Shown piece after piece: positions 460-53,922 of a DNA stretch of 64,000 bases (its first letter is position 1; every line of letters starts with the position of its first letter). Source of the DNA: a virus. Lineage: Duplodnaviria; Caudoviricetes. The notes below the pieces were generated by a model, which ran no database searches, was not told the origin of the DNA, and saw only the letters and a program-made list of their open reading frames with translations. The stretch covers positions 1 through 64,000 of the IMG/VR virus record IMGVR_UViG_3300020037_006332. One strand, written 5' to 3'. Both the position numbers and the translations under genes were made by a program.

Positions 460-506
460 TGTTTTCGGGCCTCCTTGCCCAAACTAGCTTGCGGGGCTCG
501 ATTCTA

Positions 507-2273
507 CTAAAACGCGAGTTTCTTGTCGAATGCGGTGGGTTTGATGGCAAGGCTGTCCATGCTGGCGGTTTCCCACGGGAGTTTGCCAATGGCGATTTTC
601 TCGCCGTCCCGGTAGGGCCTGTCGATGCCGTGGGTGTACTCCACTTCAAGGTGGTAGCGGCGGGTTTTCTTGTCGGCGGTATAGGTCGAATTGGCCACGA
701 TTTCGCTTTCGCCAATCAGCCGGATATGCCGGGCATTGGAAAAAATGTTCGTGGGCGGCGGGAGCTGGGGCCACTCGCCGTATCGCTCGGCGATGATTTT
801 GATGGTGCGGGCCTGGGTTTTGGGGGCCAGCACGACAAACCGGCTCGTGCGGGTCTGCTGGGATTCCTGGCTGGTCGGTGGGTTCCCGGAAACCGGGACT
901 TGCACGGTTTGATGCCGGGTCATAATCGACGTCGATAGCTCATAGAATTCGTAGCGGGTAGCGTTGGCGTCGAAATTGATGGTTACGTCTTTGGCGGCTT
1001 CGGCCTTGCCTTCGGAAATCGTGACTTTCGTGTCTTCGCCCTTGGTGCTCTTTTCTTCCTTGGTGGGCTTGTCGGTGACCTTGGCCATCCAGTGGTTTTG
1101 ATTGCACGGGCTTTGTAGGTAGCTGACGAATAGGCCCGTCATAGTGGCGGTTCCGTAGGCCGGCATCACGGGGTTGGTGTCCGGCTTGTAGTCGGGGACG
1201 CCGGTTTTCATGCTGGCCAGCCGCTCGGTGGGGAAGCCAAGGGCGGCCACGTTGTCGTTTTTGCCTTCCAGGGAGCCCCGGATCGTGCGGAGCCGCATGT
1301 CGATTTTGTTTTCGTCCAGGTAGCTGATAATGCTGGCCTGCTGGACGGTGTTGACCGACTTGCCTTTCTGGAGCCCTAGGCGTTGTTCTGAGACTAGGGC
1401 GGCGACGCGGATCAGCTCCAGCTTGGGCGTGTACTTGTCGCCCCAGACGGTAATCTGGAATTCCTCAAACACGCTGCTGCCGTCTTCGGAAATGGCGGCG
1501 TGTTGGCCGGTCCACTTGATAGCCGGGTCCGGTGGGCTGGCCACGGTTTCCTGGTCGGTGACGGTGTACTCCAGGGTCAGCCCGTCGGCGGTCGTGGCGA
1601 TATCAATGCTTTGGCGTTTGAAACCGGACTGGAGCGGCGGGACCACCCACCCGCGAAATGACTGGGGGTTAAGAATCGGATTCGTGACGCGGAGCCGGCC
1701 CGTGATCGTGCGGGTAGTTAGCCAGAATTCGTCGATCATGTCCCGGACGCTCCAGCGATTATTCAGCACGCCGGACTGGTTGGCGTTGGAGCTGGGGCAA
1801 TCCAGGCAATGTAGCTCGATGGTGAATTCGACCACCATGAGCGAGCTACCGATGATATTCGAGACGGTCACGCTGGTGGGCTTGGGGCCGTTGTTCAGGT
1901 CCGCCAGCCAAGTCCCGTCGGAAATGATTTTCGGGTGCGGTGAGGCTTGGGCCGGATAGAACGTGCCGGGGTCGTGGGCGGCCTTCACGTGCAGCAGAAT
2001 GCTCTCGCCGACGGTCATCTTAAACTCGCGGCGGGGCTCGGACAGTGCTTGGCGGATGGCGATTTCGGTTTCGGCCACGCCTAGCTGATTGATGGGCGTG
2101 ACGTCCTGGTTCGTGATCGGGCTAACGTAGCCGTGGACGTAGCCCCGGACGCTGATGGTGAACTTGTGAAACAGCAGGTCGGTGCGGGAATCGTCATACT
2201 CGCAAGTCTGGTCGAACTTGCGAGTCAGCACGTTCCGCATGGTGACCCCGTTATAGATCAGCGTGGTGGCCAT
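507..2273 (-). CDS. Putative tail tip/hub protein (588 aa)
   Basis: Long ORF translationally coupled (TAATG) to the tape-measure-like gene; function inferred from position only. Confidence 0.5.
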   Translation of the reverse strand: MATTLIYNGVTMRNVLTRKFDQTCEYDDSRTDLLFHKFTISVRGYVHGYVSPITNQDVTPINQLGVAETEIAIRQALSEPRREFKMTVGESILLHVKAAHDPGTFYPAQASPHPKIISDGTWLADLNNGPKPTSVTVSNIIGSSLMVVEFTIELHCLDCPSSNANQSGVLNNRWSVRDMIDEFWLTTRTITGRLRVTNPILNPQSFRGWVVPPLQSGFKRQSIDIATTADGLTLEYTVTDQETVASPPDPAIKWTGQHAAISEDGSSVFEEFQITVWGDKYTPKLELIRVAALVSEQRLGLQKGKSVNTVQQASIISYLDENKIDMRLRTIRGSLEGKNDNVAALGFPTERLASMKTGVPDYKPDTNPVMPAYGTATMTGLFVSYLQSPCNQNHWMAKVTDKPTKEEKSTKGEDTKVTISEGKAEAAKDVTINFDANATRYEFYELSTSIMTRHQTVQVPVSGNPPTSQESQQTRTSRFVVLAPKTQARTIKIIAERYGEWPQLPPPTNIFSNARHIRLIGESEIVANSTYTADKKTRRYHLEVEYTHGIDRPYRDGEKIAIGKLPWETASMDSLAIKPTAFDKKLAF

Positions 2274-3331
2274 TAGCCTACAGTCTCCCCGGGCTTGCGG
2301 CGGTTTCGGCCGCCGCCGTTACCCTTACGGCGTTCGGTCTGGCGTTCGTTGAAGTCTCGGCGGTAGTCCCGCGATAGGTCGTTAATCCAGGTCTGGGCCA
2401 TATTGGCCTGGGGGTTTTTCTTGGTTTCGCCCCAAATTAGTTCGTAAAGGGTGGTGACAATCCCGAAGCCCTTCACGAGCACGGTCATAATGTTGATCGC
2501 GTAGCGGCCCAGCGTGTTCCCTAGGTTGCTCATCATGTTTTTGATGGGCTGGATTTCGTCGCGGAACGTGTCCACGGCTCCAACTAGGGCGGTGGCCGAT
2601 TCGCTGGTGGCTCCGGCGGCGGAGTAGTTCCGGCGAACTTGCTTCAGGTTGCTCATGGCGTAGGCTTGGCCAATCGAGCCATTATAGAGCGATAGCGATT
2701 TGTTAGACTCGTAGAGCCCGTCCGCCAGCTTCTTGCCGGCCATCGCCACGCCTACAAATGCCCCGATAACTCCAGCCGGGCCGCTGATGCCGGACTTTAA
2801 GAGGTCCATCGCATTGCCAAGCTGGGGAATCGCATCCTTCAGCCGCTCGGCTTGCTCGGTGTTGTCGGCGGCCTTGTCTTGAGCCTGCTGGGGAGTGATC
2901 TTGCCGCCTAGCAGGTCGCCAAAGGTCTGCCCGTTGTTGGCGGCGGCGGTGGTGACCGGCGGGGGCGGTCCCGGGGGAGCCGGCTGGGACTGGGGCCCCA
3001 TAAACGCCTCGCGTAGGCCCCCCATTGCCCGCTGGGCGAACGTCCGGCGGGGTTTGAGTGGCGTAGGGGGCGGAGCCGGAGCGGGGCCCTGAGCGGACGC
3101 CACGCCTTCAGGCTGGTTAAATCCGGGCTTGGTCCAGTCGGTGATACGGGTGCTGGGGCCGGCTTGGTGCTTACTGAAGCCGCTGGCGGCGGACTTCACT
3201 AGGCTGCCTAGGTCATCGGTTTTGCTGGCGGCGGAGCCGGCGGCCCGGGCGGCCGAACGGGCGGCGACGGCTCGCCCCACTCCGCTGGCGAGTAGCCGCC
3301 CTAACACTCCAAGCAAGACGGGTGCCGGCAT
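2273..3331 (-). CDS. Tape-measure-like protein, unusually short (352 aa)
   Basis: Ala/Gly-rich and helical-looking; directly follows the G/GT chaperone pair. Confidence 0.6.
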   Translation of the reverse strand: MPAPVLLGVLGRLLASGVGRAVAARSAARAAGSAASKTDDLGSLVKSAASGFSKHQAGPSTRITDWTKPGFNQPEGVASAQGPAPAPPPTPLKPRRTFAQRAMGGLREAFMGPQSQPAPPGPPPPVTTAAANNGQTFGDLLGGKITPQQAQDKAADNTEQAERLKDAIPQLGNAMDLLKSGISGPAGVIGAFVGVAMAGKKLADGLYESNKSLSLYNGSIGQAYAMSNLKQVRRNYSAAGATSESATALVGAVDTFRDEIQPIKNMMSNLGNTLGRYAINIMTVLVKGFGIVTTLYELIWGETKKNPQANMAQTWINDLSRDYRRDFNERQTERRKGNGGGRNRRKPGETVG

Positions 3332-3333
3332 GG

Positions 3334-3615
3334 TTATAGCTCACTCTGCTGGCTGGCTTGGTAGCGGTTAATTTCGGCGGCGGCCTGTTCCTCGCTGTCG
3401 GCGAGTGCCTTGATTAGCTCGGGGTTGACGCTGCCGCTCATGGCTTGGGTAATGCCAGATAGCACGGCTGCGGTGCGTCGGGCCTCGGTGCGTTTCATGT
3501 TGAGCCAGAGTCCTACCCGGCATTCGTAGGCTTCGGCTCCGCCAGCGTTCAGCTCGGCCAAGCTGCCGGCTCCGTAGCATCCGGCTAGGTCGGCTGCCCA
3601 CTGCCATTTTTTTTT
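3334..3615 (-). CDS. Tail assembly chaperone GT extension (-1 frame)
   Basis: The -1 frame reads ...QLKKKWQWAADLAG...QSEL* with no good independent start; entered at the A9 slippery run. Confidence 0.7.
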   Translation of the reverse strand, partial: KKKWQWAADLAGCYGAGSLAELNAGGAEAYECRVGLWLNMKRTEARRTAAVLSGITQAMSGSVNPELIKALADSEEQAAAEINRYQASQQSEL

Positions 3616-3932: not shown

Positions 3933-3945
3933 GGGGGTTAATTTC

Positions 3946-4935: not shown

Positions 4936-5985
4936 TTACATGGCACCCGTGAACAAATAGCCGCTAATGCCGGCGGTGAGTTTCGGGGTGCAGTTGTCCA
5001 CGACGCGGACCACGGTTTTGCGGTTGTCGGCGTCGTACTTGGTTTCGACCGTCATGTCGTCGCCTTGGTAGACGAAAAGCGTGCAGGTCGAGAAGCTCGG
5101 GCCGCCGTACTTGCCCACCAGTGAGCCCGGGCGGGCCGTGATAAAGGGCGTCGAATCCCCCAGCACAAAGCTGCTGGCGAACGTGGCTCCCTTTTTGTTG
5201 GTGGTCTTTACGGCGTCTTCGACCACGATTTCCACGCCTGCGTAGGTGCTGGGCAGGCCGTAGAGCACGTCGCGGAATTCGCCTTCGCTCGTGTCGGCCC
5301 GGATGAAACGCAAGGCGTCCGGGCTGCTCTTGAGGTAGTCCACCATTTCCTGGCTTTCGGCCATTGCCTTCGCCAGATTCGGGTTGACTACCAGCTTGAG
5401 GTCACGGGCTTTGACCACGCCGCCGGTGCTCTTGAGAATCTGAGTAATGGCGGCGTCAATCGACTTCTTGATATAGAGGTTGGCCGTGGTGGCCGCACTC
5501 CACTGGCCGCCGGCGAGGGCGGTCGTGGTGCTCGTGTGAGCACTGGCCCAGTTGCCGCTGGTGGTCAATTCGCTGACCACAAGCTGCGTGCGGCTGGTCA
5601 TGGCCTGCTGGGCCTTGATTTCCGTGTGCTGGCCAATGATATCCCACGCGGCTTGGTCGGTGGCCAGCTTGCCCAGCGAGACGGGGTACACGTATCGCTT
5701 GCAGGTGAAGGGCAGGAATTCAAACGATTCCGCCCCCTCGTTGCCGTGCGGGGCATCCGCACCATCCGGCCACTGGTGGTCGGTGAGCGTGGTTGAGAGG
5801 ATTCGCATTCGTTCCTCGACCGTCATTTTCGTGTAGTAGCCCACCATTTCCGGGCAGGGCACCAGCGAAATGTAGCGGTTGAGGCTGAAGTCCCGGGGGT
5901 TACGCGAGAAGTCCACCAGCAGACGCTTGGACCCCTCCAGACTCGGGATAAACGTGTTGTACTGTCCGGGGAAAATAGCGGCCAT
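4936..5985 (-). CDS. Major capsid protein
   Basis: 349 aa, downstream of protease/scaffold and decoration gene; strong RBS. Confidence 0.8.
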   Translation of the reverse strand: MAAIFPGQYNTFIPSLEGSKRLLVDFSRNPRDFSLNRYISLVPCPEMVGYYTKMTVEERMRILSTTLTDHQWPDGADAPHGNEGAESFEFLPFTCKRYVYPVSLGKLATDQAAWDIIGQHTEIKAQQAMTSRTQLVVSELTTSGNWASAHTSTTTALAGGQWSAATTANLYIKKSIDAAITQILKSTGGVVKARDLKLVVNPNLAKAMAESQEMVDYLKSSPDALRFIRADTSEGEFRDVLYGLPSTYAGVEIVVEDAVKTTNKKGATFASSFVLGDSTPFITARPGSLVGKYGGPSFSTCTLFVYQGDDMTVETKYDADNRKTVVRVVDNCTPKLTAGISGYLFTGAM

Positions 5986-6041
5986 GAGTTAGCATCCTTG
6001 CTAGTGGAGTTCGGGAATTCAGTCCGTGCCGGCGGCGTGGT

Positions 6042-6476
6042 TTACTGGGCCTGCCACGTGATCGGATGGATGTAAATTTGGATTTTCGTACCGTCGGCAC
6101 CCGCCTGGAGGGCGATGCCGCCGACGAAATCCTCGTCGGCACTGGCCACGACGGCTTTGCCGTTGGCGTCGCTCTTGACCCACGCCCCGGCGGTGACGGT
6201 GCCGCCGCACTCGACTAGGGCGACTTCACCCGGGCCGAAAACGCGGAGCTGGTCGCCAGCCACGGCGGCGGTGCTGGTGCTCCAGAGGCCGGTGCCTTCC
6301 TGGGACACGCCGATAACGCGGTCGCCCTTGCTCGACGTGCCGGCCGTGGCGGGCCAGACGGTGAAATCCGCCGACGGCGTGGTCGTGCCGGAGTACAGCA
6401 GGGGAACCATCGTGACAAAGCGGCACGGGTTGATCGTTCCGCCCGCGACAAAAGTGGCATTACTGAGGGTGGGCAT
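6042..6476 (-). CDS. Capsid cement/decoration protein (DUF2190-like)
   Basis: GEVALVECGGTVTAGAWVKSDANGKAV motif; between scaffold and capsid genes. Confidence 0.75.
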   Translation of the reverse strand: MPTLSNATFVAGGTINPCRFVTMVPLLYSGTTTPSADFTVWPATAGTSSKGDRVIGVSQEGTGLWSTSTAAVAGDQLRVFGPGEVALVECGGTVTAGAWVKSDANGKAVVASADEDFVGGIALQAGADGTKIQIYIHPITWQAQ

Positions 6477-6537
6477 GATTTAGCATCCTTGCTAGTTCGG
6501 TGAGTTTCTTAGTCCCGGGCGGGGGTTAATTTCGGCC

Positions 6538-8115
6538 TTAGCCCGCGTTGAGTTCTTTGCGGACTTCGTTTTCGATTTCGTCGTAACGCTTGTAGATGCC
6601 CCGGGCCACGTAGCTATTGGCCCGCTGCTCGATCTTGGCGTAGAGGGTCTTTTCGTCGGTGCCTACCTTGCGGGGCTTCGACGTCGGGAGCGGGGCAAAC
6701 CCGGTCGGGTCTTTCTGGTAACGCTCTCGCATCAGCTCCAGGTGGCTGGCAAATTGGTCGTCGTTCATGCCTTCGATGCGGGCATATTCCTCGGCCGGGT
6801 CGTACATGACCACGCCTTGCAGGGCGTCGATCTTGCTGTAACGCTCGGCGAGCGTGTGCCGCTGCTCGATGGCCTTGAGCCGCTTGGAAAGCTCGGCGTT
6901 GTCGGCGGCCAGCTTGCGGTTGTACCGCTCGATCTGGGCATACCGCTGCTGGTCGGCCCGCGTCCGGCGGTAGTCGTCCGTTTTCTTCGTTTCGGGGGCA
7001 TTGGGCATGTCGGTATCCTCGTCTTCGTCGTTTTCGTTGCGGTCCTTCGGGATCGCGTCGGGGTTATCGTCATCGCTGGGGGCCTCGGGGGCTTCGCCCT
7101 CGGGGACGCCAAAGTCGGGTGGGAGGCCGTCGCCGCCGTCGTCGTCGCCTTCGCCGGCTCCCGGGGGCATGTCGCCCATCGGATCGGCTTCGGCTTCGGC
7201 CATCGGATCAGCGGCCGGGGGCATGTCGCCGCCGGGTGCTCCGCCGGGGGCGGCCAGCGGATCGGCTCCGGGCATTCCGGGGGCGGCGGGTGCTCCGCCA
7301 GCCATCGGGTCGCCGGGCATTCCAGGGGCTCCGCCGGGGACTTGGGTGGCAGGGGCCTTGGCCTGCTGCTGCTCCATGAGCTGCTGGACGAATTTCGTCG
7401 TATCGAGTTCCATCACGGCGGCGATGATTTTGTTGATATCCTCGTCGGAAAGACTCATTCCGGTGGCCTCCGTGGCGGGTTGTTCTGGGGTTTCGTAGTG
7501 CTCGGCCTCGTCGGTCGACGTGTTGCCGGGCATAAACGTGTTGGTGGCACTGGGGGCCATTGCGGTGTAGCGGGCCACTTGGGTGCCGCTGTGACGCATC
7601 GAATAGGCCAGCCCTAGGTCGCGGCGGGGCGTTTCGGCTCCCAGCAGGGCGATGGGCTCGATATAGCGTTCGTAGGGGTCGGCTTCCCGCCAGACTTCGA
7701 CGCTGCGGCGGGGGTGCTTACGGGCCCGGTCTACGTCGTCGTGGAAGATGCCCCAGTCCTGAGCGATGATCGCGGCCCGGGGCTGTTTCTCGCCGATGGT
7801 ACCCACGTAAAACGGCCCGCAGAATCCGACTAGCGGCGGCTGGGGGATGCCCCGGCGGCGTTCGTCGGGGGTGGGCGTGTGGCCTAGACAAATGGCGGTA
7901 TAGTCGCCGGTGTTCTCAATGCGGGCGTTCATCGTATCGCACATGGCTTGCAGCACGTCGCGGCTGTAGCGGATGGTGCGATATTCGCTCGGGTTATCCG
8001 GGTCCGGTTCTTCGACTTCGTGCTCGTCGAAAACGGGCACGTCATGCTCGATGCAAAACCGGCTGGGGTCCAGCGGTACGTGGCGAGCGAGTCGATTTAG
8101 TTCGGCGGTTGCCAT
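6538..8115 (-). CDS. Prohead protease fused to scaffolding protein
   Basis: N-terminal domain with GH and ALLG...P motifs, acidic Pro/Gly linker, C-terminal coiled coil; start re-assigned to MATAEL at 8115. Confidence 0.7.
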   Translation of the reverse strand: MATAELNRLARHVPLDPSRFCIEHDVPVFDEHEVEEPDPDNPSEYRTIRYSRDVLQAMCDTMNARIENTGDYTAICLGHTPTPDERRRGIPQPPLVGFCGPFYVGTIGEKQPRAAIIAQDWGIFHDDVDRARKHPRRSVEVWREADPYERYIEPIALLGAETPRRDLGLAYSMRHSGTQVARYTAMAPSATNTFMPGNTSTDEAEHYETPEQPATEATGMSLSDEDINKIIAAVMELDTTKFVQQLMEQQQAKAPATQVPGGAPGMPGDPMAGGAPAAPGMPGADPLAAPGGAPGGDMPPAADPMAEAEADPMGDMPPGAGEGDDDGGDGLPPDFGVPEGEAPEAPSDDDNPDAIPKDRNENDEDEDTDMPNAPETKKTDDYRRTRADQQRYAQIERYNRKLAADNAELSKRLKAIEQRHTLAERYSKIDALQGVVMYDPAEEYARIEGMNDDQFASHLELMRERYQKDPTGFAPLPTSKPRKVGTDEKTLYAKIEQRANSYVARGIYKRYDEIENEVRKELNAG

Positions 8116-8213
8116 CCGTGGCAGTCCTCGAAACCGGGGTCGATAAACGCGAAAAGCCCACGGGCCGCCGTCTTGGCAGCTCATGGGCTTCTGTGTGTCA
8201 GGTAGCCTAGAGG

Positions 8214-8429: not shown

Positions 8430-8598
8430 CAGTAGATTCCCCGTCTTCCTTGTCGGGTTCGTCCTGGTCGCCTTCCTTGGCGGCCTCGGCGGCTTCTTGG
8501 GCCTGAAGTTCTTTGAGATAGTCCGGGTGCAGGCAATCGGCGTGGCTGCCGTCGGGCATTTCGATACGCTGGCCGAAAATCTCTTTAAGGATGCCCAT
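8410..8598 (-). CDS. Hypothetical acidic protein
   Basis: ORF with RBS, downstream of an operator-bearing promoter-like sequence. Confidence 0.5.
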   Translation of the reverse strand: MGILKEIFGQRIEMPDGSHADCLHPDYLKELQAQEAAEAAKEGDQDEPDKEDGESTVDTPRT

Positions 8599-8658: not shown

Positions 8659-10725
8659 CTACTGAATTCTGGCGTAGTAGGCTTTGAATTGTTCGGTTAG
8701 GTGCCGGCGGTACTGTTCCACGGCGTCAATGAGGCCCTGTTTTTCCCAGAATGCGTAGCACTTCGGGAATGCCTTCTTTAGGCCCTCTAGCCCCTTGGTT
8801 ACTCCCCAAAATCCATCTGGCTTTTTGTGCGACCACGGTTCGCCGCCGGCGGCCTCGAAAATGGCCCGGCCAAACTCGGCGAAACCTTCCCACGTGCTTT
8901 GAACGGCGTAAGCCGATAGGGGCACGTCGCTGTCTTTGACTTGCTTCCACCAGTCGCTGCGTCCGCCGCTGTTGTTGGCAATGGTCCGGACGGCACTGGT
9001 TTGGATTTCCTCTAGGAATGCTTCTACCCATTCCTGGTTTTTGGATAGCTCGAATTGGCCGGTCCCTCCGCAGTCCAGGGCGTGGGCAAATTCATGGGCA
9101 TAAATTCCTTCATTGCCGGAGCCGGCGACGTTGTGGATCGTGTTGTCGCCAGCCGCGTAGAATCCGCCCACGGTAAACCCGGCGGGCCTGCCGGTGCGTT
9201 TCTCGAATTCGGCTTGCAGGGACTCCCGGTTAGCGTAGGCTTTCATGCCGCCGGCCGTCCCCTTGGCGATGCGTTCCTTAGCCTTGGCTGAAAACCCACG
9301 CATGGATTTTCGCATTCCGGTTTTGTATTGCTCCGGCTTGCGGCCGTAGTTCGGGGCGTACTCGCCAAGGGCTTCGTTCATTTCCTTTTCAAAGTATTCC
9401 CCTAGGATTCGCTGCGTTTCTAGTGATAGCTCGGCACGCTCACGGGGCTGGTTTATAAAGTTAATTCCCCGGGCGTCGGCGGCGGCGTTGACTATCCTTT
9501 GTTGGATTGTGTTCAGGTTCTCGCCGGTATTGAATGCGGCGTGCAGCATGTCGCCGGTAATGCCTAGCGGGGCTAATTTCTTCACCAGCCCGGGCGAGAT
9601 ATCGACTAGATGGAAAGCATACTTGGGGTCTAGTTTGTAGTCGAACCAATCCCGGCGGCTGACGGTATCGACTAGCTCGTCGGTACTGCTGTCGATGGCG
9701 TCGGCCAGCTTCTCCCCCACGGCGACGCGGCTGGTGCCGGTGCTTTCGTCGAAAAGCGATTGCTGGCCCTTGGCGGCCTTGCGTTTGGGTGCGGCGGATT
9801 CTCCGGGCCCGTCCCCAAACTTTCCATCGGCCGCCCGGGGGTGCTTACTTTCGTCCCACGCATAGCGAAACTGGCGGGCGTAGCGGTAGACGGATTCGGC
9901 TCGGCGGAATCGCTGGGCGTATTGTTCCACGGCGTCCACCAGCCCATGCTTGTGCCAATAGGCGTAGCACTGCGGAAACTGAGTTTTGGCGGCCTCGGGG
10001 TCTTCAAATAAAAGCCGGCCAAACTCGGCGAAACCCTCCTCGGATCGCGTGCAGGCGTAGGCCGATAACGGCACTTCCCACGGCACTAGATCGTGCCACC
10101 AGTTATCGAAATTGCCGGAATTAAAGCCGGCTTCCATTGCGTCCAGGACGGTCTGGTTAATTATCTCGGCTCGCCATGCGTCTTCCCACTCGTTCGTTTG
10201 GGAAAACTCATACCGCTTTCCGTTCCAGTCAATCGCGTGGGCAAACTCGTGGGCGTAGCTCCCGGCCTGACCTTCCGTGGCAATGGTTGCTATGTAGCCC
10301 TTACTGCGGTCAAAAAACCCCATCACGCCTGCGTTTTCGGGGAGCCCTGACGCTACCGAAATTTCGGCGGAATCTTCGTAAGCCTCGAATCCATTGGGGC
10401 ACGAATTGCTAATCCGCTCGATGGCCTTGCGGCTGAATCGGTCCAGCACGCTGGCCATCTGCTGGCGGTACGCCTTGACGTTATCCCGGGATAAAAACGC
10501 CTTGCTTTCTTGCCCCGGGAAAGTCTTTAGCTTGTGGGATTGCCGTAGCCGTTCCTCGATGCTCTGGCGGTGGTCGGTTGGTTCAGGGGCCGATGGTTCG
10601 GCTCCGCCGCCCTCGCCAAACTTCCCGTCTTCGGCCCTCGGGTGCTTACTTTCGTCCCACTGGGCGGCGTAGCGGTCCAGGTAGGTGAATTCGGCGAATG
10701 CCAGCCGGTAGGCTAGGTCGTTCAT
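8659..10725 (-). CDS. Putative internal virion protein with two zincin (HEFAH...EGFAE) metallopeptidase-like domains
   Basis: Start re-assigned to MNDLAY (10725). Two HEFAH motifs, each with a downstream LSAYA..EGFAEF; two WDESKHPR motifs. Confidence 0.75.
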   Translation of the reverse strand: MNDLAYRLAFAEFTYLDRYAAQWDESKHPRAEDGKFGEGGGAEPSAPEPTDHRQSIEERLRQSHKLKTFPGQESKAFLSRDNVKAYRQQMASVLDRFSRKAIERISNSCPNGFEAYEDSAEISVASGLPENAGVMGFFDRSKGYIATIATEGQAGSYAHEFAHAIDWNGKRYEFSQTNEWEDAWRAEIINQTVLDAMEAGFNSGNFDNWWHDLVPWEVPLSAYACTRSEEGFAEFGRLLFEDPEAAKTQFPQCYAYWHKHGLVDAVEQYAQRFRRAESVYRYARQFRYAWDESKHPRAADGKFGDGPGESAAPKRKAAKGQQSLFDESTGTSRVAVGEKLADAIDSSTDELVDTVSRRDWFDYKLDPKYAFHLVDISPGLVKKLAPLGITGDMLHAAFNTGENLNTIQQRIVNAAADARGINFINQPRERAELSLETQRILGEYFEKEMNEALGEYAPNYGRKPEQYKTGMRKSMRGFSAKAKERIAKGTAGGMKAYANRESLQAEFEKRTGRPAGFTVGGFYAAGDNTIHNVAGSGNEGIYAHEFAHALDCGGTGQFELSKNQEWVEAFLEEIQTSAVRTIANNSGGRSDWWKQVKDSDVPLSAYAVQSTWEGFAEFGRAIFEAAGGEPWSHKKPDGFWGVTKGLEGLKKAFPKCYAFWEKQGLIDAVEQYRRHLTEQFKAYYARIQ

Positions 10726-11337: not shown

Positions 11338-11358
11338 CGCGGGTTAATTCCGGGGGTG

Positions 11359-11443: not shown

Positions 11444-11471
11444 ACTATAGCGAGCGGTTTTGGCTTGTCAA
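11444..11471 (-). promoter_or_regulatory. Sigma70-like promoter with TAYAGCGAGCG operator
   Basis: TTGACA-N16-TATAGT with CGCTCGC adjoining the -10. Confidence 0.7.
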
Positions 11472-38708: not shown

Positions 38709-38709
38709 C

Positions 38710-41756: not shown

Positions 41757-41906
41757 GGCGTTCGGCCTTCAGGCGTTTGATTTCGCGGGTTAAAACGCGG
41801 GTGCTGCTCACACAAATGCGGCGGACGGCCTCGTGGTAGGTGTTCGGCCGGAGCCGGTATCCCTCGCGGGTCGCGGCGTGGATCACTTTCGCGGCTTGGC
41901 GGAGTT

Positions 41907-42146: not shown

Positions 42147-42211
42147 GGCTTGGCCCTCTAGGGTTAAAATCCAGCCCCAGCAGCGGCCGGTAGGGCCGTG
42201 GGCACAGATAC

Positions 42212-42607: not shown

Positions 42608-42969
42608 GGGCTCGGGGCTCCTAAAAACAGCTCGTCGAACGTCTGTTGGATGTTCATGTCGTGGAATTTCTCTTGCCACGCGGGCGGGAGTTTGTCGACG
42701 AAAAACCACCATGTCTGGACTTCCAGGGCGGTGAGTCGGGCGGCGAGCACAATCTGCCGGCCGTCGTCTCGGCCGCCGTCGTCGTCATAGCTGGCTGTGG
42801 CCAGCAGTGCCATGCGGGGGTAGTTGAAAAACGTGCGTTCATCGTTCGCTGGGTCGCTCGGCGTCCAGTGCTCGATTCGCTTGCTGGGGTAAAGCTGCTT
42901 GATCTTATGGCGTAGGTCCGGGATGTGCTCGACTCGCTGCATGGACGTGGGGCGGTAGTACTGGATCAT
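42604..42969 (-). CDS. Small protein, C-terminal tag family
   Basis: Ends FDELFLGAPSP. Confidence 0.6.
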   Translation of the reverse strand: MIQYYRPTSMQRVEHIPDLRHKIKQLYPSKRIEHWTPSDPANDERTFFNYPRMALLATASYDDDGGRDDGRQIVLAARLTALEVQTWWFFVDKLPPAWQEKFHDMNIQQTFDELFLGAPSP

Positions 42970-43295
42970 GCTCGGCCCTTTCGGCGGCGTCGGCGGCGGT
43001 TGGTGTCCATCGGCTGGGTTCTCGGCTCGGGCTCGGGCTGGACCCCTAGGAAAATCTCGTCGTAGTTGGCCTGGGCGGCGTCTCGGCTAGCCAGCTCATT
43101 CACGCGGCCCTGGATTTGGTCCAGCTTGAGCCGCGATTCGCTGGCCAGCTCGGAATGCTTGAACTGCCGTTCCGCTAGATGGCTGTTGGCTTCGACTAGG
43201 GCCTTGAATAGAGCGTATTTCATGGCCACGGCCACAAAGCAAAATACGGTCAAGCCGGTTAGCCAAACGGTGAGCACGATTTCGATGGCTGTCAC
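42966..43295 (-). CDS. Small TM/coiled-coil protein, C-terminal tag family
   Basis: GTG start; YDEIFLG. Confidence 0.55.
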   Translation of the reverse strand: MTAIEIVLTVWLTGLTVFCFVAVAMKYALFKALVEANSHLAERQFKHSELASESRLKLDQIQGRVNELASRDAAQANYDEIFLGVQPEPEPRTQPMDTNRRRRRRKGRA

Positions 43296-43666
43296 TGGGG
43301 TGCCCCTAGGAAAATGCGTTCCAATGTCTCGTCCAGCACGCCGGGCCGGAATTGGGTGGGCACTTCGTCGGCTTTGAACCACCATGTCCGCACGGCCAGC
43401 ACTTCGCCCTTGACGGTGGTTAGGCGTCCCATGAGGTAATTCGTGCCTATCCCGGTTAGGTTCGGGGCAGTCGCTAAAGCCTCGATTTTCACGCCCCTGG
43501 TCGGTCGCCAAAATTCCAGCACGGCCTGCTTATAGTTGGCCATGCTGGGCGGGCTCCAGTGCAGGATTCTGGCCCTGGGGTAAAGTCTGGTTAGTTGCTG
43601 GTGTAGCTGCTTGGTGGAGGCGTATGGCGTCACGGCTGGCATTCCGCAAATCTCGGTCTGGATCAT
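43292..43666 (-). CDS. Small protein, C-terminal tag family
   Basis: Ends LERIFLGAPQ. Confidence 0.6.
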   Translation of the reverse strand: MIQTEICGMPAVTPYASTKQLHQQLTRLYPRARILHWSPPSMANYKQAVLEFWRPTRGVKIEALATAPNLTGIGTNYLMGRLTTVKGEVLAVRTWWFKADEVPTQFRPGVLDETLERIFLGAPQ

Positions 43667-43844
43667 GGCCCGGGCTCCCGCTTTGGGGGTTCGGGCGACA
43701 ATTGCTCACGGGCCCAGCGGTGCCACTCGGCGTCCCATTTGGCGTCGGGCTCGTCGCTGGCGGGGAGCTGGCTTTCGTCGATGATCTTGCCCACCTTGAA
43801 GTATGGCAATCGCGGGGGCTGCGGCTGGCGTTCGTCGGGCATGG

Positions 43845-44276
43845 CTAGTGGTCCCGTTTCTTGGCTTTCATGGTTTCCAGGATCGTGATTAGCTGCTGCT
43901 TCATGGCTGCCACGGCGGCGGTGATTTGCTCGCCGCTCATGCCCATCATTTGCATCGCGGCCCTGGTCTTAAAGGCCGATTCCGGGTGCAGAATGTTGGT
44001 CGAAACCAGCATAAAACTTTCGTTGGGCGTGGTGCCGGCCTCAAACTCGGCTACGGTCTTCTCCCCCCATGCGTCGGTTTGCTGTTCGGCTTCTTCGCCG
44101 GTCTTGGCCACGCAGATGAGTTTCACGCGGTCGGTATAGATCACGAGCCCGGCCCAGATTTCGCCCCACTTCTCGCGTCCGATTTCCAGGATTTTGCGGC
44201 TATCGCCTTCCTCGATGGCCTGCTCTAGCTTGCTGGTCTTGGAATTGGCAAACCAGCGTTTCAGGAACGTGCTCAC
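43845..44276 (-). CDS. Hypothetical protein
   Basis: First gene after a promoter. Confidence 0.6.
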   Translation of the reverse strand: MSTFLKRWFANSKTSKLEQAIEEGDSRKILEIGREKWGEIWAGLVIYTDRVKLICVAKTGEEAEQQTDAWGEKTVAEFEAGTTPNESFMLVSTNILHPESAFKTRAAMQMMGMSGEQITAAVAAMKQQLITILETMKAKKRDH

Positions 44277-44321
44277 GTCTATTGCCCCCTTTTTTTATAT
44301 AGTTATTTTGGTCTGTCGCTG

Positions 44322-44349
44322 ATTATATAGCGAGCGTACTTAGATGCAA
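44322..44349 (-). promoter_or_regulatory. Sigma70-like promoter with operator
   Basis: TTGCAT-N16-TATAAT with CGCTCGC. Confidence 0.7.
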
Positions 44350-44354
44350 GATGG

Positions 44355-44597
44355 TTAATTCCCGGGCTGGCCTAGGAACGTGTCCTCTAGGGTCTGGTCG
44401 AATAGCTGGCGGCGGGCGTATTCGGCTAAATGGGGCTCAATAATGGCTTTCCAGCCCTCGTCGAGCCTGACCGGCTCCTGGATGCCTGGAATCCAAAGCT
44501 GGTACTGCCGGCCGTGGGTTCCGGTTTCCACGGGGGCGGCAAAGGCGATGCGGGCGGGGTCCAGGAAAACGCCTTTTCCTAGGTCAATGAGGGGCAT
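44355..44597 (-). CDS. Small protein, C-terminal tag family
   Basis: LEDTFLG. Confidence 0.55.
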   Translation of the reverse strand: MPLIDLGKGVFLDPARIAFAAPVETGTHGRQYQLWIPGIQEPVRLDEGWKAIIEPHLAEYARRQLFDQTLEDTFLGQPGN

Positions 44598-44967
44598 TTT
44601 GGCCTCGATTCGTTAGGAAAATCTGGTCGAACACTTGGCCGCAAGTGAGGTCGTCCATCTTGCGAAGCGTGATTCCGGGCGGGGCTGGGGACGTTTTCAG
44701 CCAAACCCACCATCCCCGGATGGTCTTTGTTTCGTGGCGAATGCAAGCCACTAGGTAGGCCGGGCCGGCGGCACCGCCGGTGACGTCGGGGGCCGTGTGC
44801 ACGATCACGTATTCAGGCTGGCCGGGGGCCAGCCAAAATAGCTCGTTCAGGTCCAAGCGGTTGCCGCCCGGCAATCCCCTCCAGACGCCTACCCAATGTT
44901 CGTATCGGTAGCCCGGGTGCAAGCCGACTAGGTGGTCGATGGCTCGGTCCATGTCGCTTTTGCTCAT
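44584..44967 (-). CDS. Small protein, C-terminal tag family
   Basis: FDQIFLT. Confidence 0.55.
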   Translation of the reverse strand: MSKSDMDRAIDHLVGLHPGYRYEHWVGVWRGLPGGNRLDLNELFWLAPGQPEYVIVHTAPDVTGGAAGPAYLVACIRHETKTIRGWWVWLKTSPAPPGITLRKMDDLTCGQVFDQIFLTNRGQNAPH

Positions 44968-45311
44968 GCCTGCCCCCCTAAGAAAATGGCGTCATAGGCT
45001 TGCTCTAGTGCCTCGCTGGGGGCTTTATGCTCCTGGATGATCGGGTCGGTTCGCCGGCTGGCTCCCTCAGTAACCCACCAGAAGTCCGTGCGGCTGCCGT
45101 TGGCGGTGGCCATGAGGTACTGGGGGACTTCTTCGTCGGTGGCCGCAATCAGCGTGGTCCGGCCCGGGGCGGGGTGATTCAGCACGGTGTCAGTGTGCAC
45201 AAACCGGCCGACGGGGAAACGCTTCCGCAAACCCGCGATGGCCTTGTCCGATTGTTCCTCGATGCGTGTGACACGCAAGCCGGGGACTAGGGCGTAGGTG
45301 AATTCGCTCAT
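44964..45311 (-). CDS. Small protein, C-terminal tag family
   Basis: YDAIFLG. Confidence 0.55.
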   Translation of the reverse strand: MSEFTYALVPGLRVTRIEEQSDKAIAGLRKRFPVGRFVHTDTVLNHPAPGRTTLIAATDEEVPQYLMATANGSRTDFWWVTEGASRRTDPIIQEHKAPSEALEQAYDAIFLGGQA

Positions 45312-45673
45312 AGGAAAATCCGCTCCAGCTCCCGGGTGAAGTCTACGGCGTGCAGGTCAAGTTCCCGGATCGGCGGATAGGCGGCTACGTCGGGGTGTGT
45401 TTCGTGGTCGGTGTAGTAGCTGACGTCGCAATAGCCTACCCGGTGGACGCGGATATAAATCGGGTAGTCGGCGTGCATGTTGGCCCCCGGGTGCACGGCC
45501 CGGTAGCCTGTGAGCCGGTAGTAGGTAAATGGCCCCTGTCTCGCTGGTTCCTTTTGGTAAAAAAAATAGTCGCTATGCTTGGCCCATTCGAGATAGACCA
45601 TTGCGACGCGAAGGGCCTTTCGCAGAATGTCCACGAATTCAGCGTTTTGGTCTTTGGTGTGAATGAGTGGCAT
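45308..45673 (-). CDS. Small protein, C-terminal tag family
   Basis: Ends LERIFL. Confidence 0.55.
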   Translation of the reverse strand: MPLIHTKDQNAEFVDILRKALRVAMVYLEWAKHSDYFFYQKEPARQGPFTYYRLTGYRAVHPGANMHADYPIYIRVHRVGYCDVSYYTDHETHPDVAAYPPIRELDLHAVDFTRELERIFL

Positions 45674-45676: not shown

Positions 45677-46159
45677 TTAAAATTCCCAGCCGGGGACGGC
45701 TTTGCTGAAAAATCCCGCTAGGGCTCGATAGGCTTTTTCGTCGATCACTACCAGCTTGACGGCGGGGTGATACTTGGCCATGCGTTTGATCTTGGTTTTA
45801 CTGCGGCCGTCCATGTGGCCTTTGACTTCGTGAAACTCGACGCGGCCGTCGGGTAGGGTGACTTTGAAATCGGGCAGGTAGCTGACGCATCCCCGTTTGA
45901 CTCCGGCAAACCAAAATGTTTCGGGCTCGTGGGCCCAGTCCTGGATATCGCCACGTTGCTTTTGCCACTCCAGATAGCGGGCGTAGTTGGCTTCCCATTT
46001 GGATCGGTAATATTTCTTTTGGCCTCCAATCTCTTGCCACGACGCTCGCCACTTTCGGGCCGCTGGGGATTTCGGGGGCGGTGCCTTGCGGGCCTCGGTT
46101 AATTTCCGGGCCAGCTCGGCGGCGTCCAGGCTAGGCGTCGGGGCTTTCTTCTTGGTCAT
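45677..46159 (-). CDS. PD-(D/E)xK endonuclease (DUF1064-like)
   Basis: SKWEANYARYL...YLPDF...EVKG. Confidence 0.75.
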   Translation of the reverse strand: MTKKKAPTPSLDAAELARKLTEARKAPPPKSPAARKWRASWQEIGGQKKYYRSKWEANYARYLEWQKQRGDIQDWAHEPETFWFAGVKRGCVSYLPDFKVTLPDGRVEFHEVKGHMDGRSKTKIKRMAKYHPAVKLVVIDEKAYRALAGFFSKAVPGWEF

Positions 46160-46691
46160 CGCGGGGGCCTTCCGTGGCTGGCTCCTTGGGTTCGGTCAAG
46201 TGGTCCAGCTTGGCCTGGAGTTGCTCGACTTGAAACTCCAGGCTTTTCAGTCGGGCTAAAACCACGCCGGTGGCAAAGCAAAGCCGGTCCATCGCGTCGG
46301 CCTTTGGATCGTCGTCCGGGCTGTTGCTGTAGGTGTGCAGCTCGACGCGGCGGGCGAGCCATGTTATCCGGTCTTGGAGGACTTCAATATCGCCGGTTTC
46401 GAGGACTGCGGAATCGAGTGGCATAGGGTCGGGCTCTTTCTTGTAGGTGGTGGTGGTTTTGGTTTCGGTGAATCGCGGTTCTTCGTTGGCGGCGTAGGCC
46501 CGGGTGGTTTCTCGCCAACTGGCTAGGGTGTCTTGCTCGTGCTGGCGGCCGTCGGCTCGGGCCAGCCGGAGGATCAATAGAAATAGGGCCATGCCGGTGA
46601 GTAGGCCGGCGATGGCGTAGGAAACCCCGTGGGGGTCGTTCTGGTGGAGCCACGCGGGCCACTGGTGCCAGTCGGCGGGGAGTGGTGTCAT
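46131..46691 (-). CDS. Single-TM protein with coiled coil
   Basis: Hydrophobic AIAGLLTGMALFLLIL. Confidence 0.5.
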   Translation of the reverse strand: MTPLPADWHQWPAWLHQNDPHGVSYAIAGLLTGMALFLLILRLARADGRQHEQDTLASWRETTRAYAANEEPRFTETKTTTTYKKEPDPMPLDSAVLETGDIEVLQDRITWLARRVELHTYSNSPDDDPKADAMDRLCFATGVVLARLKSLEFQVEQLQAKLDHLTEPKEPATEGPRDDQEESPDA

Positions 46692-47074: not shown

Positions 47075-47520
47075 GGGTTTCCCTTTCCTAAAAAAATCTC
47101 GTGTAGGTTGTGATTGACGGGGGTGAAAACGTGGTGCTCGCTGCCATATCGGACTAGCTCGTCAATTCGCTGGCGGGTGCGGGGGTTGCGTTTGGCTAGC
47201 GTTTCCAGGACTCCCTGCCAGCCGTTGTGGTGCGGCCGGTCTTCGTGCAGGTAGGACGTTATGAATAGTTTTCGCGGGGCCCGGGCGGTGGGTGTGAATT
47301 GCAGCTTCCCCACGGCTAGCATCCAGCTCCCGAAGTTGTGTGAGCAATAGGCATGGGCCGTTCGCACGGGACTGAGGGGATCGAAATATCTCACCAGCGA
47401 AATCGACGAACAAAGGGGCCCTATGCTTTCCGCGAATGTCCAGCCATCCACCACGAATTGGATTTTCTCGCCGGGGTATAACTCCCGGAATGTCTCCAGC
47501 GGTAGGGTGCTAGTTCTCAT
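47071..47520 (-). CDS. Small protein, C-terminal tag family
   Basis: LHEIFLG. Confidence 0.55.
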   Translation of the reverse strand: MRTSTLPLETFRELYPGEKIQFVVDGWTFAESIGPLCSSISLVRYFDPLSPVRTAHAYCSHNFGSWMLAVGKLQFTPTARAPRKLFITSYLHEDRPHHNGWQGVLETLAKRNPRTRQRIDELVRYGSEHHVFTPVNHNLHEIFLGKGNP

Positions 47521-50687: not shown

Positions 50688-50747
50688 AGCGGTAAACTCC
50701 AGTTTTGGTTAAATCCGTTCGGGTTGAAAATGTCCGCCCAGCGGACA

Positions 50748-52019: not shown

Positions 52020-52970
52020 CTACTCTAGTGCCTTTAGTATTTTCTTGGTCGCGGACTCGCCGACTTTCCGAAGCGTGCGAATCGACTTAGGGGCCACGGT
52101 GAAACCGGCCCGGTCGCTGGTCTTCCAGGCGTAGAGCGAGCCATCCGGGAGCCGGGCGTAGGTGTTATCCCCTAGGGCGGCCTTGACGGTGTTCTCGAAT
52201 AGCTCGATATCCTTTTCCAGCTCTTTGATCTGGGCCCGGGCCTCGTCGGCCTTGCTGGCCATATCGGCCGGGATGCTGGTCACTTCTACCAGTAGCCCGT
52301 TATCGCGGGGGTGCAGTTGGGTTAAAACTCGGCTGGTTAATTCGCTGTCATCGGCCGGCGGCATTTTGTTGTTTTGAACATACCACCAGAATTTTGCGGC
52401 CGATTCCAGCATGGCCTCGATAAACTCGTCGTCCCGCTGGACGTCGTACCAGACTAGCCGCTGGCCTCCGATCAAGGCGGCGAGCGTGCCCCACGTGCAT
52501 CCCGTGCAAGCCAGTTCGGCCTGCACTTGGATTTGATACTGGAGCGGGATGCTGGCTTCCTCCTTCCAGTGCTTGCCCATCATTTCGTTGGTGGTCTTCA
52601 CTTGCAGCACGCCGACTAGCGGGTTCGGCTCGATTTGCTGCCATGCGTCCGGGGTACAGCCCAGAAATGGGTAGTCCGGGTGCTGGTGCACGGTGAACGG
52701 CGGGGCGGCCTGGACTAGCCGGCCCGTCCGCTCGGCAAACTCGTCGATGATCGGGCCCTCGAATCGTTGCCCCCAGCGGATACGCTCGTGGAGGGCGGCT
52801 AGGTCTTCGGCCGGCAGGTTGCCGGTCTTCTCGGCCCAAACGGCGACGGGGCTTTTCCAGGGTGAAAACCCTAGGGCGGCGGCGATATCACTGGCCCCTA
52901 GTAGACTGCGGCGGGCCAGCAGCCACGCCTCGCGGCTACTGTAGGCGGTTGGTGCGGGGTGGCGTGTCAT
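52020..52970 (-). CDS. YqaJ-like viral recombinase/exonuclease
   Basis: WL..RR..LGASD, WG..FE, TPD, QVKT, YQIQVQ. Confidence 0.88.
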   Translation of the reverse strand: MTRHPAPTAYSSREAWLLARRSLLGASDIAAALGFSPWKSPVAVWAEKTGNLPAEDLAALHERIRWGQRFEGPIIDEFAERTGRLVQAAPPFTVHQHPDYPFLGCTPDAWQQIEPNPLVGVLQVKTTNEMMGKHWKEEASIPLQYQIQVQAELACTGCTWGTLAALIGGQRLVWYDVQRDDEFIEAMLESAAKFWWYVQNNKMPPADDSELTSRVLTQLHPRDNGLLVEVTSIPADMASKADEARAQIKELEKDIELFENTVKAALGDNTYARLPDGSLYAWKTSDRAGFTVAPKSIRTLRKVGESATKKILKALE

Positions 52971-53445
52971 CGTCTTTCTGGTCCTGGAGGGCGTCGGTTA
53001 ATTCCTTCATCAGCTCGCGGATCGCGTCTTTGCTCTCGGGGAGCCCTTTGGTCACAATCGGGAAAATCGCGTCTTGCATGGCGTGCATAAGCGTGTTCGT
53101 CATGCGGTTGCAATCGTCGATGGCGTCGTCGCCGGAGCACTTCACTTCGGCCATGAGCCGGGCGGCGGTGCGTAGCAGGGCCCGGACCATTGCCGCCGAG
53201 TGGTTGGTGAACCGTAGGCTAGTGGCCTTGATATCGTCCATGCTCGTGGTTTCCGGGTCGGGTAGTCCGTCGGGGAATGCGTTGGCGGTTAAATACCCGT
53301 TGGCGGCCTCGATTATGAAATCGAATGCCTTTTTCTCCAGGGCGATAACCTGGAGCATTTCCGGCATCTTTTCCTGGGCCTCGGCCTTGGTGGCCTTTTC
53401 GCGGATCGAGTCTGAGAAGTCTTTCCAAAAATCTTCGGGCTTCAT
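52936..53445 (-). CDS. Hypothetical protein
   Basis: Co-oriented ORF. Confidence 0.55.
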   Translation of the reverse strand: MKPEDFWKDFSDSIREKATKAEAQEKMPEMLQVIALEKKAFDFIIEAANGYLTANAFPDGLPDPETTSMDDIKATSLRFTNHSAAMVRALLRTAARLMAEVKCSGDDAIDDCNRMTNTLMHAMQDAIFPIVTKGLPESKDAIRELMKELTDALQDQKDDDTPPRTNRLQ

Positions 53446-53456
53446 GCGTCGGGCTC

Positions 53457-53750
53457 CTAGGTTAATTTTGCGAGTGCGGTGCGGGGTCGGGTGTAGTACA
53501 CAAACCCGGCGATTTCGATGCCGTTCGGGTGCAGTATGTAGGGCGTTCCTGGCCAGTGGGTGCGGTGCATGTGTAGGGGCCCCCAGTGCTTGGTGGCGGC
53601 CCGGCCTACTATGGATTCTTCGGCGGCCCGGGCTCGCCAGCCGTCACGGTTTGCTCGGCGGATGGTGGTGGTAAACTCGCCAGTTATCTCAGTGGGCTCG
53701 TGGGTGGCCCACTCGAAAACCATGTCCTGGGGTGTGATTTCAGGCGGCAT
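53457..53750 (-). CDS. Small protein, N-tag family
   Basis: MPPEITPQDMVFEW; directly downstream of csrA. Confidence 0.55.
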   Translation of the reverse strand: MPPEITPQDMVFEWATHEPTEITGEFTTTIRRANRDGWRARAAEESIVGRAATKHWGPLHMHRTHWPGTPYILHPNGIEIAGFVYYTRPRTALAKLT

Positions 53751-53922
53751 TGACCTTGGCCTCTGCGGCTAGTCGGGCCTTAACTTCGCTGCGGTGCACG
53801 GTGACGTCGCGGGGGGCCTCGATGCCCAGCTTAACGCGGCCGTCGCGGGCCTCCAGGACGCGGATCACGATGTTCTCGCCGACAATCACGTCTTCGCCAT
53901 TCTTCCGGGTTAAAACCAGCAT
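53740..53922 (-). CDS. csrA: Carbon storage regulator CsrA/RsmA homolog (60 aa)
   Basis: MLVLTRKNGEDVIVGENIVIRVLEARDGRVKLGIEAPRDVTVHRSEV; AAGGA RBS. Confidence 0.95.
   Translation of the reverse strand: MLVLTRKNGEDVIVGENIVIRVLEARDGRVKLGIEAPRDVTVHRSEVKARLAAEAKVNAA

Follow-up and report, generated by a model that had tools for sequence, protein, structure and literature searches.

Does a phage that encodes a CsrA-family protein also carry, on the leaders of its own genes, the RNA sites that such a protein would read? The question is raised by the first 64 kb (64,000 nucleotides [nt], the whole stretch analyzed here, called the window) of the 72,560-bp IMG/VR virus record IMGVR_UViG_3300020037_006332, in which a complete csrA gene lies on the same strand as a set of short hairpins that display a GGA in a hexaloop at translation starts. 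Phage csrA genes have been catalogued for years without a known target or role, and candidate cis-sites on the phage's own virion leaders make such a role directly testable. An earlier reading of the sequence (here called the original prediction) proposed that CsrA acts as a translational gate on the whole packaging and morphogenesis regulon. We found that the hairpins are a non-random feature of the phage's ribosome sites and recur on orthologous genes of other lineages; that they serve as operators for a CsrA-family protein is the reading that we tentatively prefer.

Genes were called with a heuristic of our own, whose start caller scored only Shine-Dalgarno (SD) words and never pairing. A hairpin was counted wherever an NNGGAN hexaloop was closed by at least three pairs, and a GGA was assigned to a ribosome site when it lay at -17 to -2 of a called start. 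A census of the mRNA strand gave 56 hexaloops with at least three closing pairs among 1263, and these were concentrated at starts: 20 of 82 ribosome-site GGAs were in hairpins, compared with 35 of 1171 elsewhere on that strand (odds ratio 10.5, p = 1.7e-11). The other three hexaloop registers gave 1 to 2 of 82 each, and the only other enriched loop sizes were 4 and 8 and, more weakly, 7, all of them centered on the same GGA and representing nested versions. Given a closing pair, the stem extended to at least three pairs at 20 of 38 ribosome sites versus 35 of 318 background positions (p = 1e-8). Permutation of the 3' flanks among ribosome sites yielded 4.3 ± 1.9 hairpins, with a maximum of 12 in 5000, versus the 20 observed. 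Since the start caller is blind to pairing, this enrichment test is not circular.

While the stems vary by gene (UAGC twice, UGGC, CGC, UGCC, GGC, GGCC, GCC, GUC, GCGAA, UUUGGGC, AGC, and others), the loop is kept. At ribosome sites, eight of nine AAGGAT hexamers lie in hairpins, compared with 2 of 12 AAGGAA hexamers. Hairpin-free ribosome sites of the same phage use AAGGAA or GGAG(G), and a U after the GGA is rare there. This U (U6 of the loop) adds nothing to SD pairing, yet the loop prefers AAGGAU, which counts for a CsrA-type reader. Of the core CANGGANG, the mRNA strand has 36 copies and the opposite strand 6, and 21 of the 36 fall within 25 nt upstream of a start. In 11 of the 20 ribosome-site hairpins, an A[ACU]GGA(U/G) loop is closed by a C-G pair, in agreement with the consensus (A/U)CANGGANG(U/A) and with RUACARGGAUGU, the consensus with GGA in a hairpin loop that was selected for CsrA by systematic evolution of ligands by exponential enrichment (PMC4347634). 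The phage's most common forms, C-AAGGAU-G and C-ACGGAU-G, equal the CARGGAUG core of this consensus. With a C-G pair closing a hexaloop that holds the GGA, and with the CARGGAUG core, the hairpins match the architecture of CsrA/RsmE sites, and they also share what we take to be the architecture of the RsmE-hcnA complex (PDB 2JPP).

The individual hairpins are listed here with their folding free energies (dG) where relevant; gene lengths are in amino acids (aa).

5990-6003, minus strand: UAGC-AAGGAU-GCUA over the SD of the major capsid protein (MCP) gene (4936-5985; MCP by phrog_1005); dG -3.1 kcal/mol, closing-pair probability 0.93 in a -45 to +25 context
6481-6494, minus strand: identical UAGC-AAGGAU-GCUA over the SD of a scaffold-like gene (6042-6476; phrog_673 head scaffolding protein, E 6e-18)
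8110-8123, minus strand: UGCC-ACGGAU-GGCA, the loop holding the AUG of a 525-aa head-module gene (6538-8115); same in L233, the relative with 98% MCP identity
10728-10741, minus strand: UGGC-AAGGAU-GCCA over the SD of a 688-aa gene (8659-10725); L233 keeps the GGC/GCC stem with a 7-nt loop
16358-16369, minus strand: CGC-AAGGAU-GCG over the SD of a 1628-aa portal fusion gene (11468-16354; portal by phrog_113)
18307-18318, minus strand: GCC-AAGGAU-GGC, the loop holding the AUG of a KTSC-domain gene (17169-18311; PF13619)
22434-22445, minus strand: GGC-AUGGAU-GCC, the loop holding the AUG of TerL (20057-22438)
25580-25593, minus strand: GGCC-AAGGAU-GGCC, the loop holding the AUG of an 89-aa gene (25316-25585), with an AAGGAGG SD just upstream
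27620-27631, minus strand: AGC-AGGGAC-GCU before a 102-aa gene (27306-27614)
464-483, minus strand: UUUGGGC-AAGGAG-GCCCGAA, seven pairs, before a 407-aa gene that is cut by the window start (complete copy at 70993-72216 of the record); dG -9.2 kcal/mol
37611-37626, minus strand: GCGAA-AAGGAU-UUCGC before a 343-aa gene (36576-37607) in the middle region
41487-41498, minus strand: GUC-AAGGAU-GGC before a subtilase gene (40400-41482; PF00082) in the middle region
46167-46178, minus strand: GCC-ACGGAA-GGC before a DUF1064 gene (45677-46159); beyond the original list
31283-31294, minus strand: GGG-AAGGAA-CCC before a 93-aa gene (30995-31276); beyond the original list
62447-62458, minus strand: GCG-AUGGAG-CGU before a radical-SAM gene (61332-62441); beyond the original list
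53927-53938, minus strand: GAA-AAGGAA-UUU at csrA's own ribosome site; weak, mostly A-U stem, dG 0 when folded alone
50694-50705, 47079-47096, and 45315-45326, minus strand: weak sites resembling that of csrA

All 14 sites of the original prediction read as described on the minus (mRNA) strand, but those at 28360-28369 and 29886-29895 have only two closing pairs, and the one given as 467-480 is really the seven-pair hairpin at 464-483. Its gene names held for MCP, portal, TerL, and the KTSC gene, which are supported by family matches; the "decoration" gene matches a scaffold family, and "protease," "internal protein," "spike base," and "tail gene" found no clear family in profile comparisons. 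The expected overlap with SD or AUG was seen throughout: the first G of the GGA lies 10 to 15 nt from the start, or the AUG lies within the loop and takes the place of the SD there, as at 8110, 18307, 22434, and 25580. Most of them fold with no more than -1 to -5 kcal/mol; being so weak, and with the GGA unpaired, the hairpins cannot by themselves occlude the SD. The weak A-U-stemmed sites at csrA and at 50694, 47079, and 45315 may be due to chance.

The comparison covered 26 records of related phages, each taken in full, and some 75 loci of the structural module. Enrichment was found in few lineages, namely this phage with L233, L232 (68% MCP identity), L003/L004 (62%), the G024/G026/G027 clade (43 to 44%), and G028, and more weakly in G038. 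Most relatives, including L235 to L237 (60 to 62% MCP identity) and all prophage copies, had no such hairpins. Where orthologous leaders can be set side by side, the stems differ between relatives as they do between genes, which confirms the original observation of changing stems around a constant loop. The MCP leader carries UAGC-AAGGAU-GCUA here, UUUUUUC-AAGGAU-GAAAAAA in L232, ACGC-AAGGAA-GCGU in L003, and UUGUGA-AAGGAU-UCACAA in the G026 clade, and the scaffold leaders have stems beginning with UAGC, UUUUUUC, or AGUGA across lineages. The TerL leader has GGC-AUGGAU-GCC here, AACC-AAGGAU-GGUU in G026, and CGC-ACGGAU-GCG in G019; the KTSC leader has GCC-AAGGAU-GGC here and GCAUC-AAGGAU-GGUGC in G038; and the portal leader has CGC-AAGGAU-GCG here and ACUC-AUGGAA-GAGU in a relative. 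The same loop on a free stem sequence, repeated on orthologous leaders, is as predicted for an RNA-binding factor that reads the loop.

A candidate for such a factor is encoded in the phage's early region.

53740-53922, minus strand: csrA, intact, 60 aa (translation, Pfam, and alignment)
55502-55529, minus strand: sigma-70-like promoter, TTGACG-16-TATAAT (11/12), heading the DUF2201-csrA unit by consensus match only

The csrA gene is complete, as originally described, and its product matches the Pfam CsrA family PF02599 (E 3e-22, 78.7 bits at a cut-off of 27 bits), with residues 1 to 50 on profile positions 1 to 50 of 53. Residues 1 to 56 align without gaps to E. coli CsrA (1Y00), the aligned residues including L2, L4, R6, K7, V40, V42, H43, R44, and V47. 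The protein is 49 to 60% identical to Planctomycete paralogues and keeps their VHR motif, and is therefore of the host type. We take the RNA-binding residues of E. coli CsrA to be those in regions 2 to 7 and 40 to 47 (L2, L4, R6, R7, V40, V42, R44, and I47), and, judged from the alignment, the phage protein keeps the residues at these positions. The early context assigned to csrA was supported as well, since the unit that holds the gene and the gene's ribosome site are both of the early type, and the sigma-70-like promoter lies ahead of them. Its locus is syntenic in a close relative with 98% MCP identity (window 52936-53922 versus L238:10001-11337), in which the flanking genes are 80 to 100% identical, CsrA is 65% identical, two of the three downstream genes are 34 to 52% identical, and the third has no match in this phage (G000). 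By these identities, the stretch from csrA into the genes that directly follow it is a hypervariable island. Despite the 65% identity, the relative's CsrA keeps residues 1 to 7 and most of the 37 to 47 stretch, including the aligned RNA-binding residues.

Early genes at 59.7 to 51.8 kb have plain (A)AAAGGAA ribosome sites, as had been noted before. Early leaders (window 54000-59700, 30363-30400, and 30708-30740) further share AAAATCGCA about 15 to 30 nt upstream of this site; one of them sits behind the near-consensus sigma-70 promoter at 55502-55529, and AAAATCGCA is probably the common 5' end of early transcripts made by the host RNA polymerase. Just upstream of csrA, the 103-nt DUF2201-csrA gap holds a strong GC-rich inverted repeat (CCGGCGGCTGG ... 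CCAGCCGCCGG, window 53970-54002), which could be a terminator, an attenuator, or a processing hairpin.

No cultured relatives were found by nucleotide and capsid-protein searches of INPHARED. The capsid has 647 relatives in metagenomes, and an alignment-based scan gave 80 loci in IMG/VR. Capsid matches in species genomes came from 25 contigs, nearly all of them in metagenome-assembled genomes (MAGs) of Planctomycetota (Pirellulales, Planctomycetaceae, and Thermoguttaceae); several lie within contigs of 0.15 to 2.4 Mb, so that these copies are prophages. Judging from these relatives, the host phylum is Planctomycetota. Ribosome-site hairpins were at background (6/132 and 1/64) in two 200-kb Planctomycete chromosome samples subjected to the same analysis, and the hairpins are thus not a host-wide ribosome-site design. 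Each of five Planctomycete MAGs (G044 to G048; loci L200 to L211) has 7 to 17 CsrA matches above the Pfam cut-off, so that a host protein is no less plausible as the reader than that of the phage.

For a CsrA regulator, 7 to 17 genes per MAG is a very large paralogue family. In two MAGs (G046:C10 and G045:C10), a flagellin gene is found about 1 kb or less from a csrA; the flagellin leader is the classic CsrA target in the FliW-type system. A separate observation concerns the host sample G045:C2:1000001-1200000 (L212 to L221), which holds three copies of a repeat element at offsets 174114 and 179870 (plus) and 157917 (minus), two with full open reading frames (ORFs) of 114 to 129 aa and one cut short at 44 aa. 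The element starts a helix-turn-helix ORF (MPNLSKKYKVALSPEIRAELEAIARK...) with its AUG inside a phage-type GGC-AAGGAU-GCC hairpin, and we read it as an insertion-sequence transposase from repeat structure and sequence only.

On the reading that we prefer, the hairpins would be short ribosome-site cassettes in which a stem of 3 to 7 pairs presents A(N)GGA(U) or the AUG on its loop and which act as CsrA/Rsm-type operators. A CsrA-family protein would bind the loop and compete with the 30S subunit, and this reader would be the phage's early CsrA, one of the many host paralogues, or both. With the loop occupied, translation of the capsid, scaffold, and head-module proteins, the portal, the KTSC protein, and TerL, the most heavily expressed products, would be kept low or delayed, and the block would ease once accumulating late mRNA outnumbers the binding protein or the protein is otherwise antagonized. 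CsrA binding, which CsrA binds, the sign of the effect, and the timing role are what we infer from the sites. We give operators for a CsrA-family protein, from phage or host, that compete with the ribosome on the major virion-gene leaders slightly less than an even chance, and within this reading the phage's own CsrA as main reader takes roughly half of the weight. In its most specific form, the proposal is a private circuit in which the early phage CsrA would bind loop-displayed AAGGAU operators on capsid, scaffold, portal, terminase, and other virion leaders, timing or dosing late synthesis, with the same design having arisen repeatedly in unrelated phage groups; put in these terms, it appears unlikely.

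Several results weigh against the operator reading. Taking all hairpins together, one is present on 11 of the 39 late genes and on 9 of the 65 genes of the early and middle classes (p = 0.12), so that the proposed gate on the whole packaging and morphogenesis regulon is not upheld, and of the enrichment count that the original prediction called for, the excess over permuted flanks is clear and the late-versus-early contrast is weak. The bias becomes visible in two post hoc subsets: among genes with a real leader, a hairpin is present in 10 of 19 late and 4 of 28 early or middle genes (p = 0.009, post hoc), and the strict A[ACU]GGAU class is found on 8 of 39 late and 2 of 65 other genes (p = 0.005, post hoc). 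The usual dual-site architecture is absent: within ±65 nt, a second GGA is not in excess (1.05 upstream and 0.75 downstream, versus 0.81 and 0.73 in other genes), its density being no different from the genome mean either, and three hairpin leaders have no second GGA at all in this range. A search for a CsrB/RsmZ-type sponge RNA gave none: nothing matched Rfam at gathering score, and no GGA cluster lay between genes, the maximum of 5 ANGGA per 200 nt being in coding sequence. In the 98%-MCP relative, a AGGAAUUUAACCC ribosome-site cassette stands in place of the scaffold-gene hairpin between near-identical flanks, and a 55-aa tail-region gene shows the reverse exchange, a hairpin gained in the relative. 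Such exchange indicates that the hairpin is a mobile, interchangeable module and that no single gene strictly needs it. Moreover, U6 could have been selected merely to pair with A1, as the predicted minimum free energy structure has a tetraloop. Host flagellin leaders, chosen as a positive control for a CsrA site in these hosts, lack a C-AAGGAU-G hairpin; as the Planctomycete CsrA regulon is not known, we count this as uninformative and not as negative.

The predicted co-occurrence of csrA and sites also failed to appear. Of 43 related records, 10 have the gene; among those that are near-complete, the figure is 4 of 10. The csrA-positive relatives G004, G013, G016, G036, G037, G043, and G010 are not hairpin-enriched (the csrA of G010, which sits where the provirus ends, may belong to the host), and G019 is only weakly so. 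Conversely, G038 is 96% complete, csrA-negative, and hairpin-enriched (7/48). An association between csrA and hairpins is therefore not demonstrable across the 26 relatives. The hairpin-rich G024 and G028 do not inform this comparison, as their contigs end before the syntenic csrA region; the informative hairpin-rich lineages closest to the question, this phage (G000) with L233/L238 and the G026/G027 clade, are both csrA-positive. In the cultured csrA-positive phages phi297, PSTCR8lys, and 219E41.2 (of Pseudomonas, Providencia, and Vibrio), the hairpin rate of 3 to 6% equals background.

An alternative is that the hairpins work without CsrA. A short stem might simply keep the SD or AUG in an open loop, insulated from long-range pairing in the GC-rich (61%) late mRNAs, so that initiation is standardized or raised on highly expressed genes, and csrA would then be an unrelated accessory gene acting on host mRNAs. 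The weak stems with an unpaired GGA fit this view, as do the concentration on the most highly expressed virion genes with real leaders, the interchange with another ribosome-site cassette in a close relative, the missing dual-site architecture, and the hairpins of csrA-negative G038 together with the many csrA-positive phages that have none; there is also a published parallel in the SAS element GGGATAGGAGCCC at mycobacteriophage starts. However, a device for displaying the SD should not favor AAGGAU over the better SD matches GGAGG and AAGGAG that the phage uses elsewhere, nor place the AUG rather than the SD in the loop at four sites, and a predicted A1-U6 pair would shrink the open loop to four bases. 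In addition, host genes of similar or higher GC content and most relatives in the same GC range do without it. We consider this explanation a serious contender, though somewhat unlikely. A different role for CsrA binding is conceivable as well, in which abundant late mRNAs with high-affinity sites would act as decoys that titrate the host CsrA paralogues and reprogram host translation late in infection, with the phage CsrA serving another purpose, such as replacing or competing with host CsrA. The best sites, identical 14-mers, belong to the MCP and scaffold transcripts, which should outnumber the other late mRNAs, the hosts have their 7 to 17 paralogues, and a place in a hypervariable island is typical of host-interaction genes. 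Each leader nevertheless has a single site, a clustered multi-site RNA is missing, and all sites overlap starts, for which a pure decoy would have no need; we regard a sponge of this kind as improbable.

Chance, base composition, or start calling could in principle have produced the pattern, given that 11 of the 20 hairpins have only three pairs, that 4 of the 20 have weak stems of A-U pairs plus one G-U with dG 0, and that the gene calls are heuristic. Against this stand the single enriched register, the gap between the permutation maximum and the observed count, a start caller that scored SD words only, and the recurrence on orthologous genes of independent lineages, together with the absence, by the same analysis, from host DNA and most relatives. 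An artefact is thus very improbable, and chance or composition was rejected. A protein-binding palindrome at the DNA level was also considered and is unlikely, as the arms are 3 to 4 bp long, the spacer is asymmetric, and the elements lie strictly on the mRNA strand at starts.

Besides the hairpins, many starts are preceded by another repeated cassette, (A)GGAAWTTAACCC, of ribosome-site or intergenic type (window 3933-3945, 8550-8570, 11340-11355, and many others; L233:9480-9500). It swaps with the hairpin cassette between close relatives and overlaps the strand-polarized WTTAACC motif.

The genome around these elements appears essentially complete. The record ends overlap (window 1-804 versus record 71758-72560, L002:8758-9560) with 96.6% identity and one indel, so that the contig closes circularly to about 71.8 kb and probably represents the essentially whole genome; the mismatch level suggests that two strain variants were merged during assembly. 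About 101 to 104 genes were called, almost all on the minus strand. In minus-strand order, the virion and packaging genes run from about 28.4 kb down to 0.5 kb and then over the junction to about 64.9 kb, and comprise TerS, TerL, the KTSC-domain protein, the 1628-aa portal fusion, the 525-aa head protein, the scaffold-like protein, MCP, a Mu gp36-like protein, and tail genes. From about 64.9 to 60.9 kb there are ORFs without a name, a methyltransferase-like gene, and the radical-SAM gene. The early region (about 60 to 47 kb) encodes DUF6011, DUF6744, an AAA ATPase, a DUF2201 metallopeptidase/VWA protein, CsrA, YqaJ, and RecT, and the middle region has many small genes, the subtilase, a MauG-like di-haem peroxidase, and an HATPase protein.

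Some of these genes are unusual in themselves. The subtilase S8 and the MauG-like di-haem cytochrome c peroxidase (window 38710-41482), together with the radical-SAM enzyme (61332-62441), form an enzyme set that is unusual for a phage and possibly has a role in peptide or protein maturation. The portal (11468-16354) is fused to about 1100 aa of additional modules, giving 1628 aa in total. In the TerL ORF (793 aa; window 20057-22540), the PHROG TerL matches start only at residue 350, which is consistent with an intein. In window 35017-45311, consecutive small genes share ...IFL(G/P) C-terminal codons (GATTTTCCT...).

Genes for CsrA have been published for about 1.2% of phage genomes, including Pseudomonas rsmM-type phages, and the Bcep22-like phage JC1 has csrA (gp47) between portal and capsid; the role of phage csrA is explicitly untested in published work. 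We found csrA in 88 INPHARED records. As in the published phage and plasmid cases, the protein studied here is a small intact CsrA on a phage; unlike here, those papers describe no set of cis-sites on the phage's own genes, and here the host phylum is Planctomycetota. We found no publication that describes a set of CsrA-type sites on the genes of the phage itself. New in this work are the Planctomycete host setting with its many csrA copies and the comparison of leaders across lineages, as are the use of host chromosomes as a control, the exchange of cassettes, and the finding that the cultured csrA-positive phages show no enrichment. If the operator reading is true, a translational layer from a borrowed bacterial global regulator would be added to a mostly transcriptional picture of phage late-gene control, and CsrA biology would be opened in Planctomycetota, with 7 to 17 csrA copies in each of five host genomes. 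If the hairpins work without CsrA, they would be a compact and portable ribosome-site module of practical interest for GC-rich expression systems.

Among known systems, repression by CsrA, RsmA, and RsmE (RsmE-hcnA and CsrA-glgC) is alike in that a short hairpin covering the SD or start shows a GGA in its loop and is closed by a C-G pair, and in having a family protein encoded in the same genome. It differs in that the phage sites are on virion-gene leaders, one per leader, with no second GGA and no sponge RNA, and in that the candidate reader may be a host paralogue. Phage translational operators are represented by the hairpin of the MS2 coat protein-replicase system, by T4 RegA, and by T4 RegB, which cleaves at GGAG in early SDs. 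What these have in common with the candidate system is a phage-encoded RNA-binding factor acting on a short motif or hairpin at the ribosome sites of a temporal gene class; they involve other protein families and motifs, with a single operator in MS2 and early genes as targets of RegA and RegB, whereas here a bacterial global regulator family meets late-biased hairpins. The nearest published analogue is the SAS/ESAS of Cluster K mycobacteriophages, an SD-core motif 3 to 7 nt from starts with symmetric outer bases GGG...CCC that is rare in the host and whose reader is unknown (PMC3203893). Both are repeated, start-linked, lineage-specific elements with an SD core that are rare in the host. However, SAS is a fixed 13-nt GGGATAGGAGCCC on non-structural genes, whereas the phage hairpins vary the stem, keep the loop, favor virion genes, and come with an encoded candidate reader. 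They are therefore an analogue of SAS and not a member of it.

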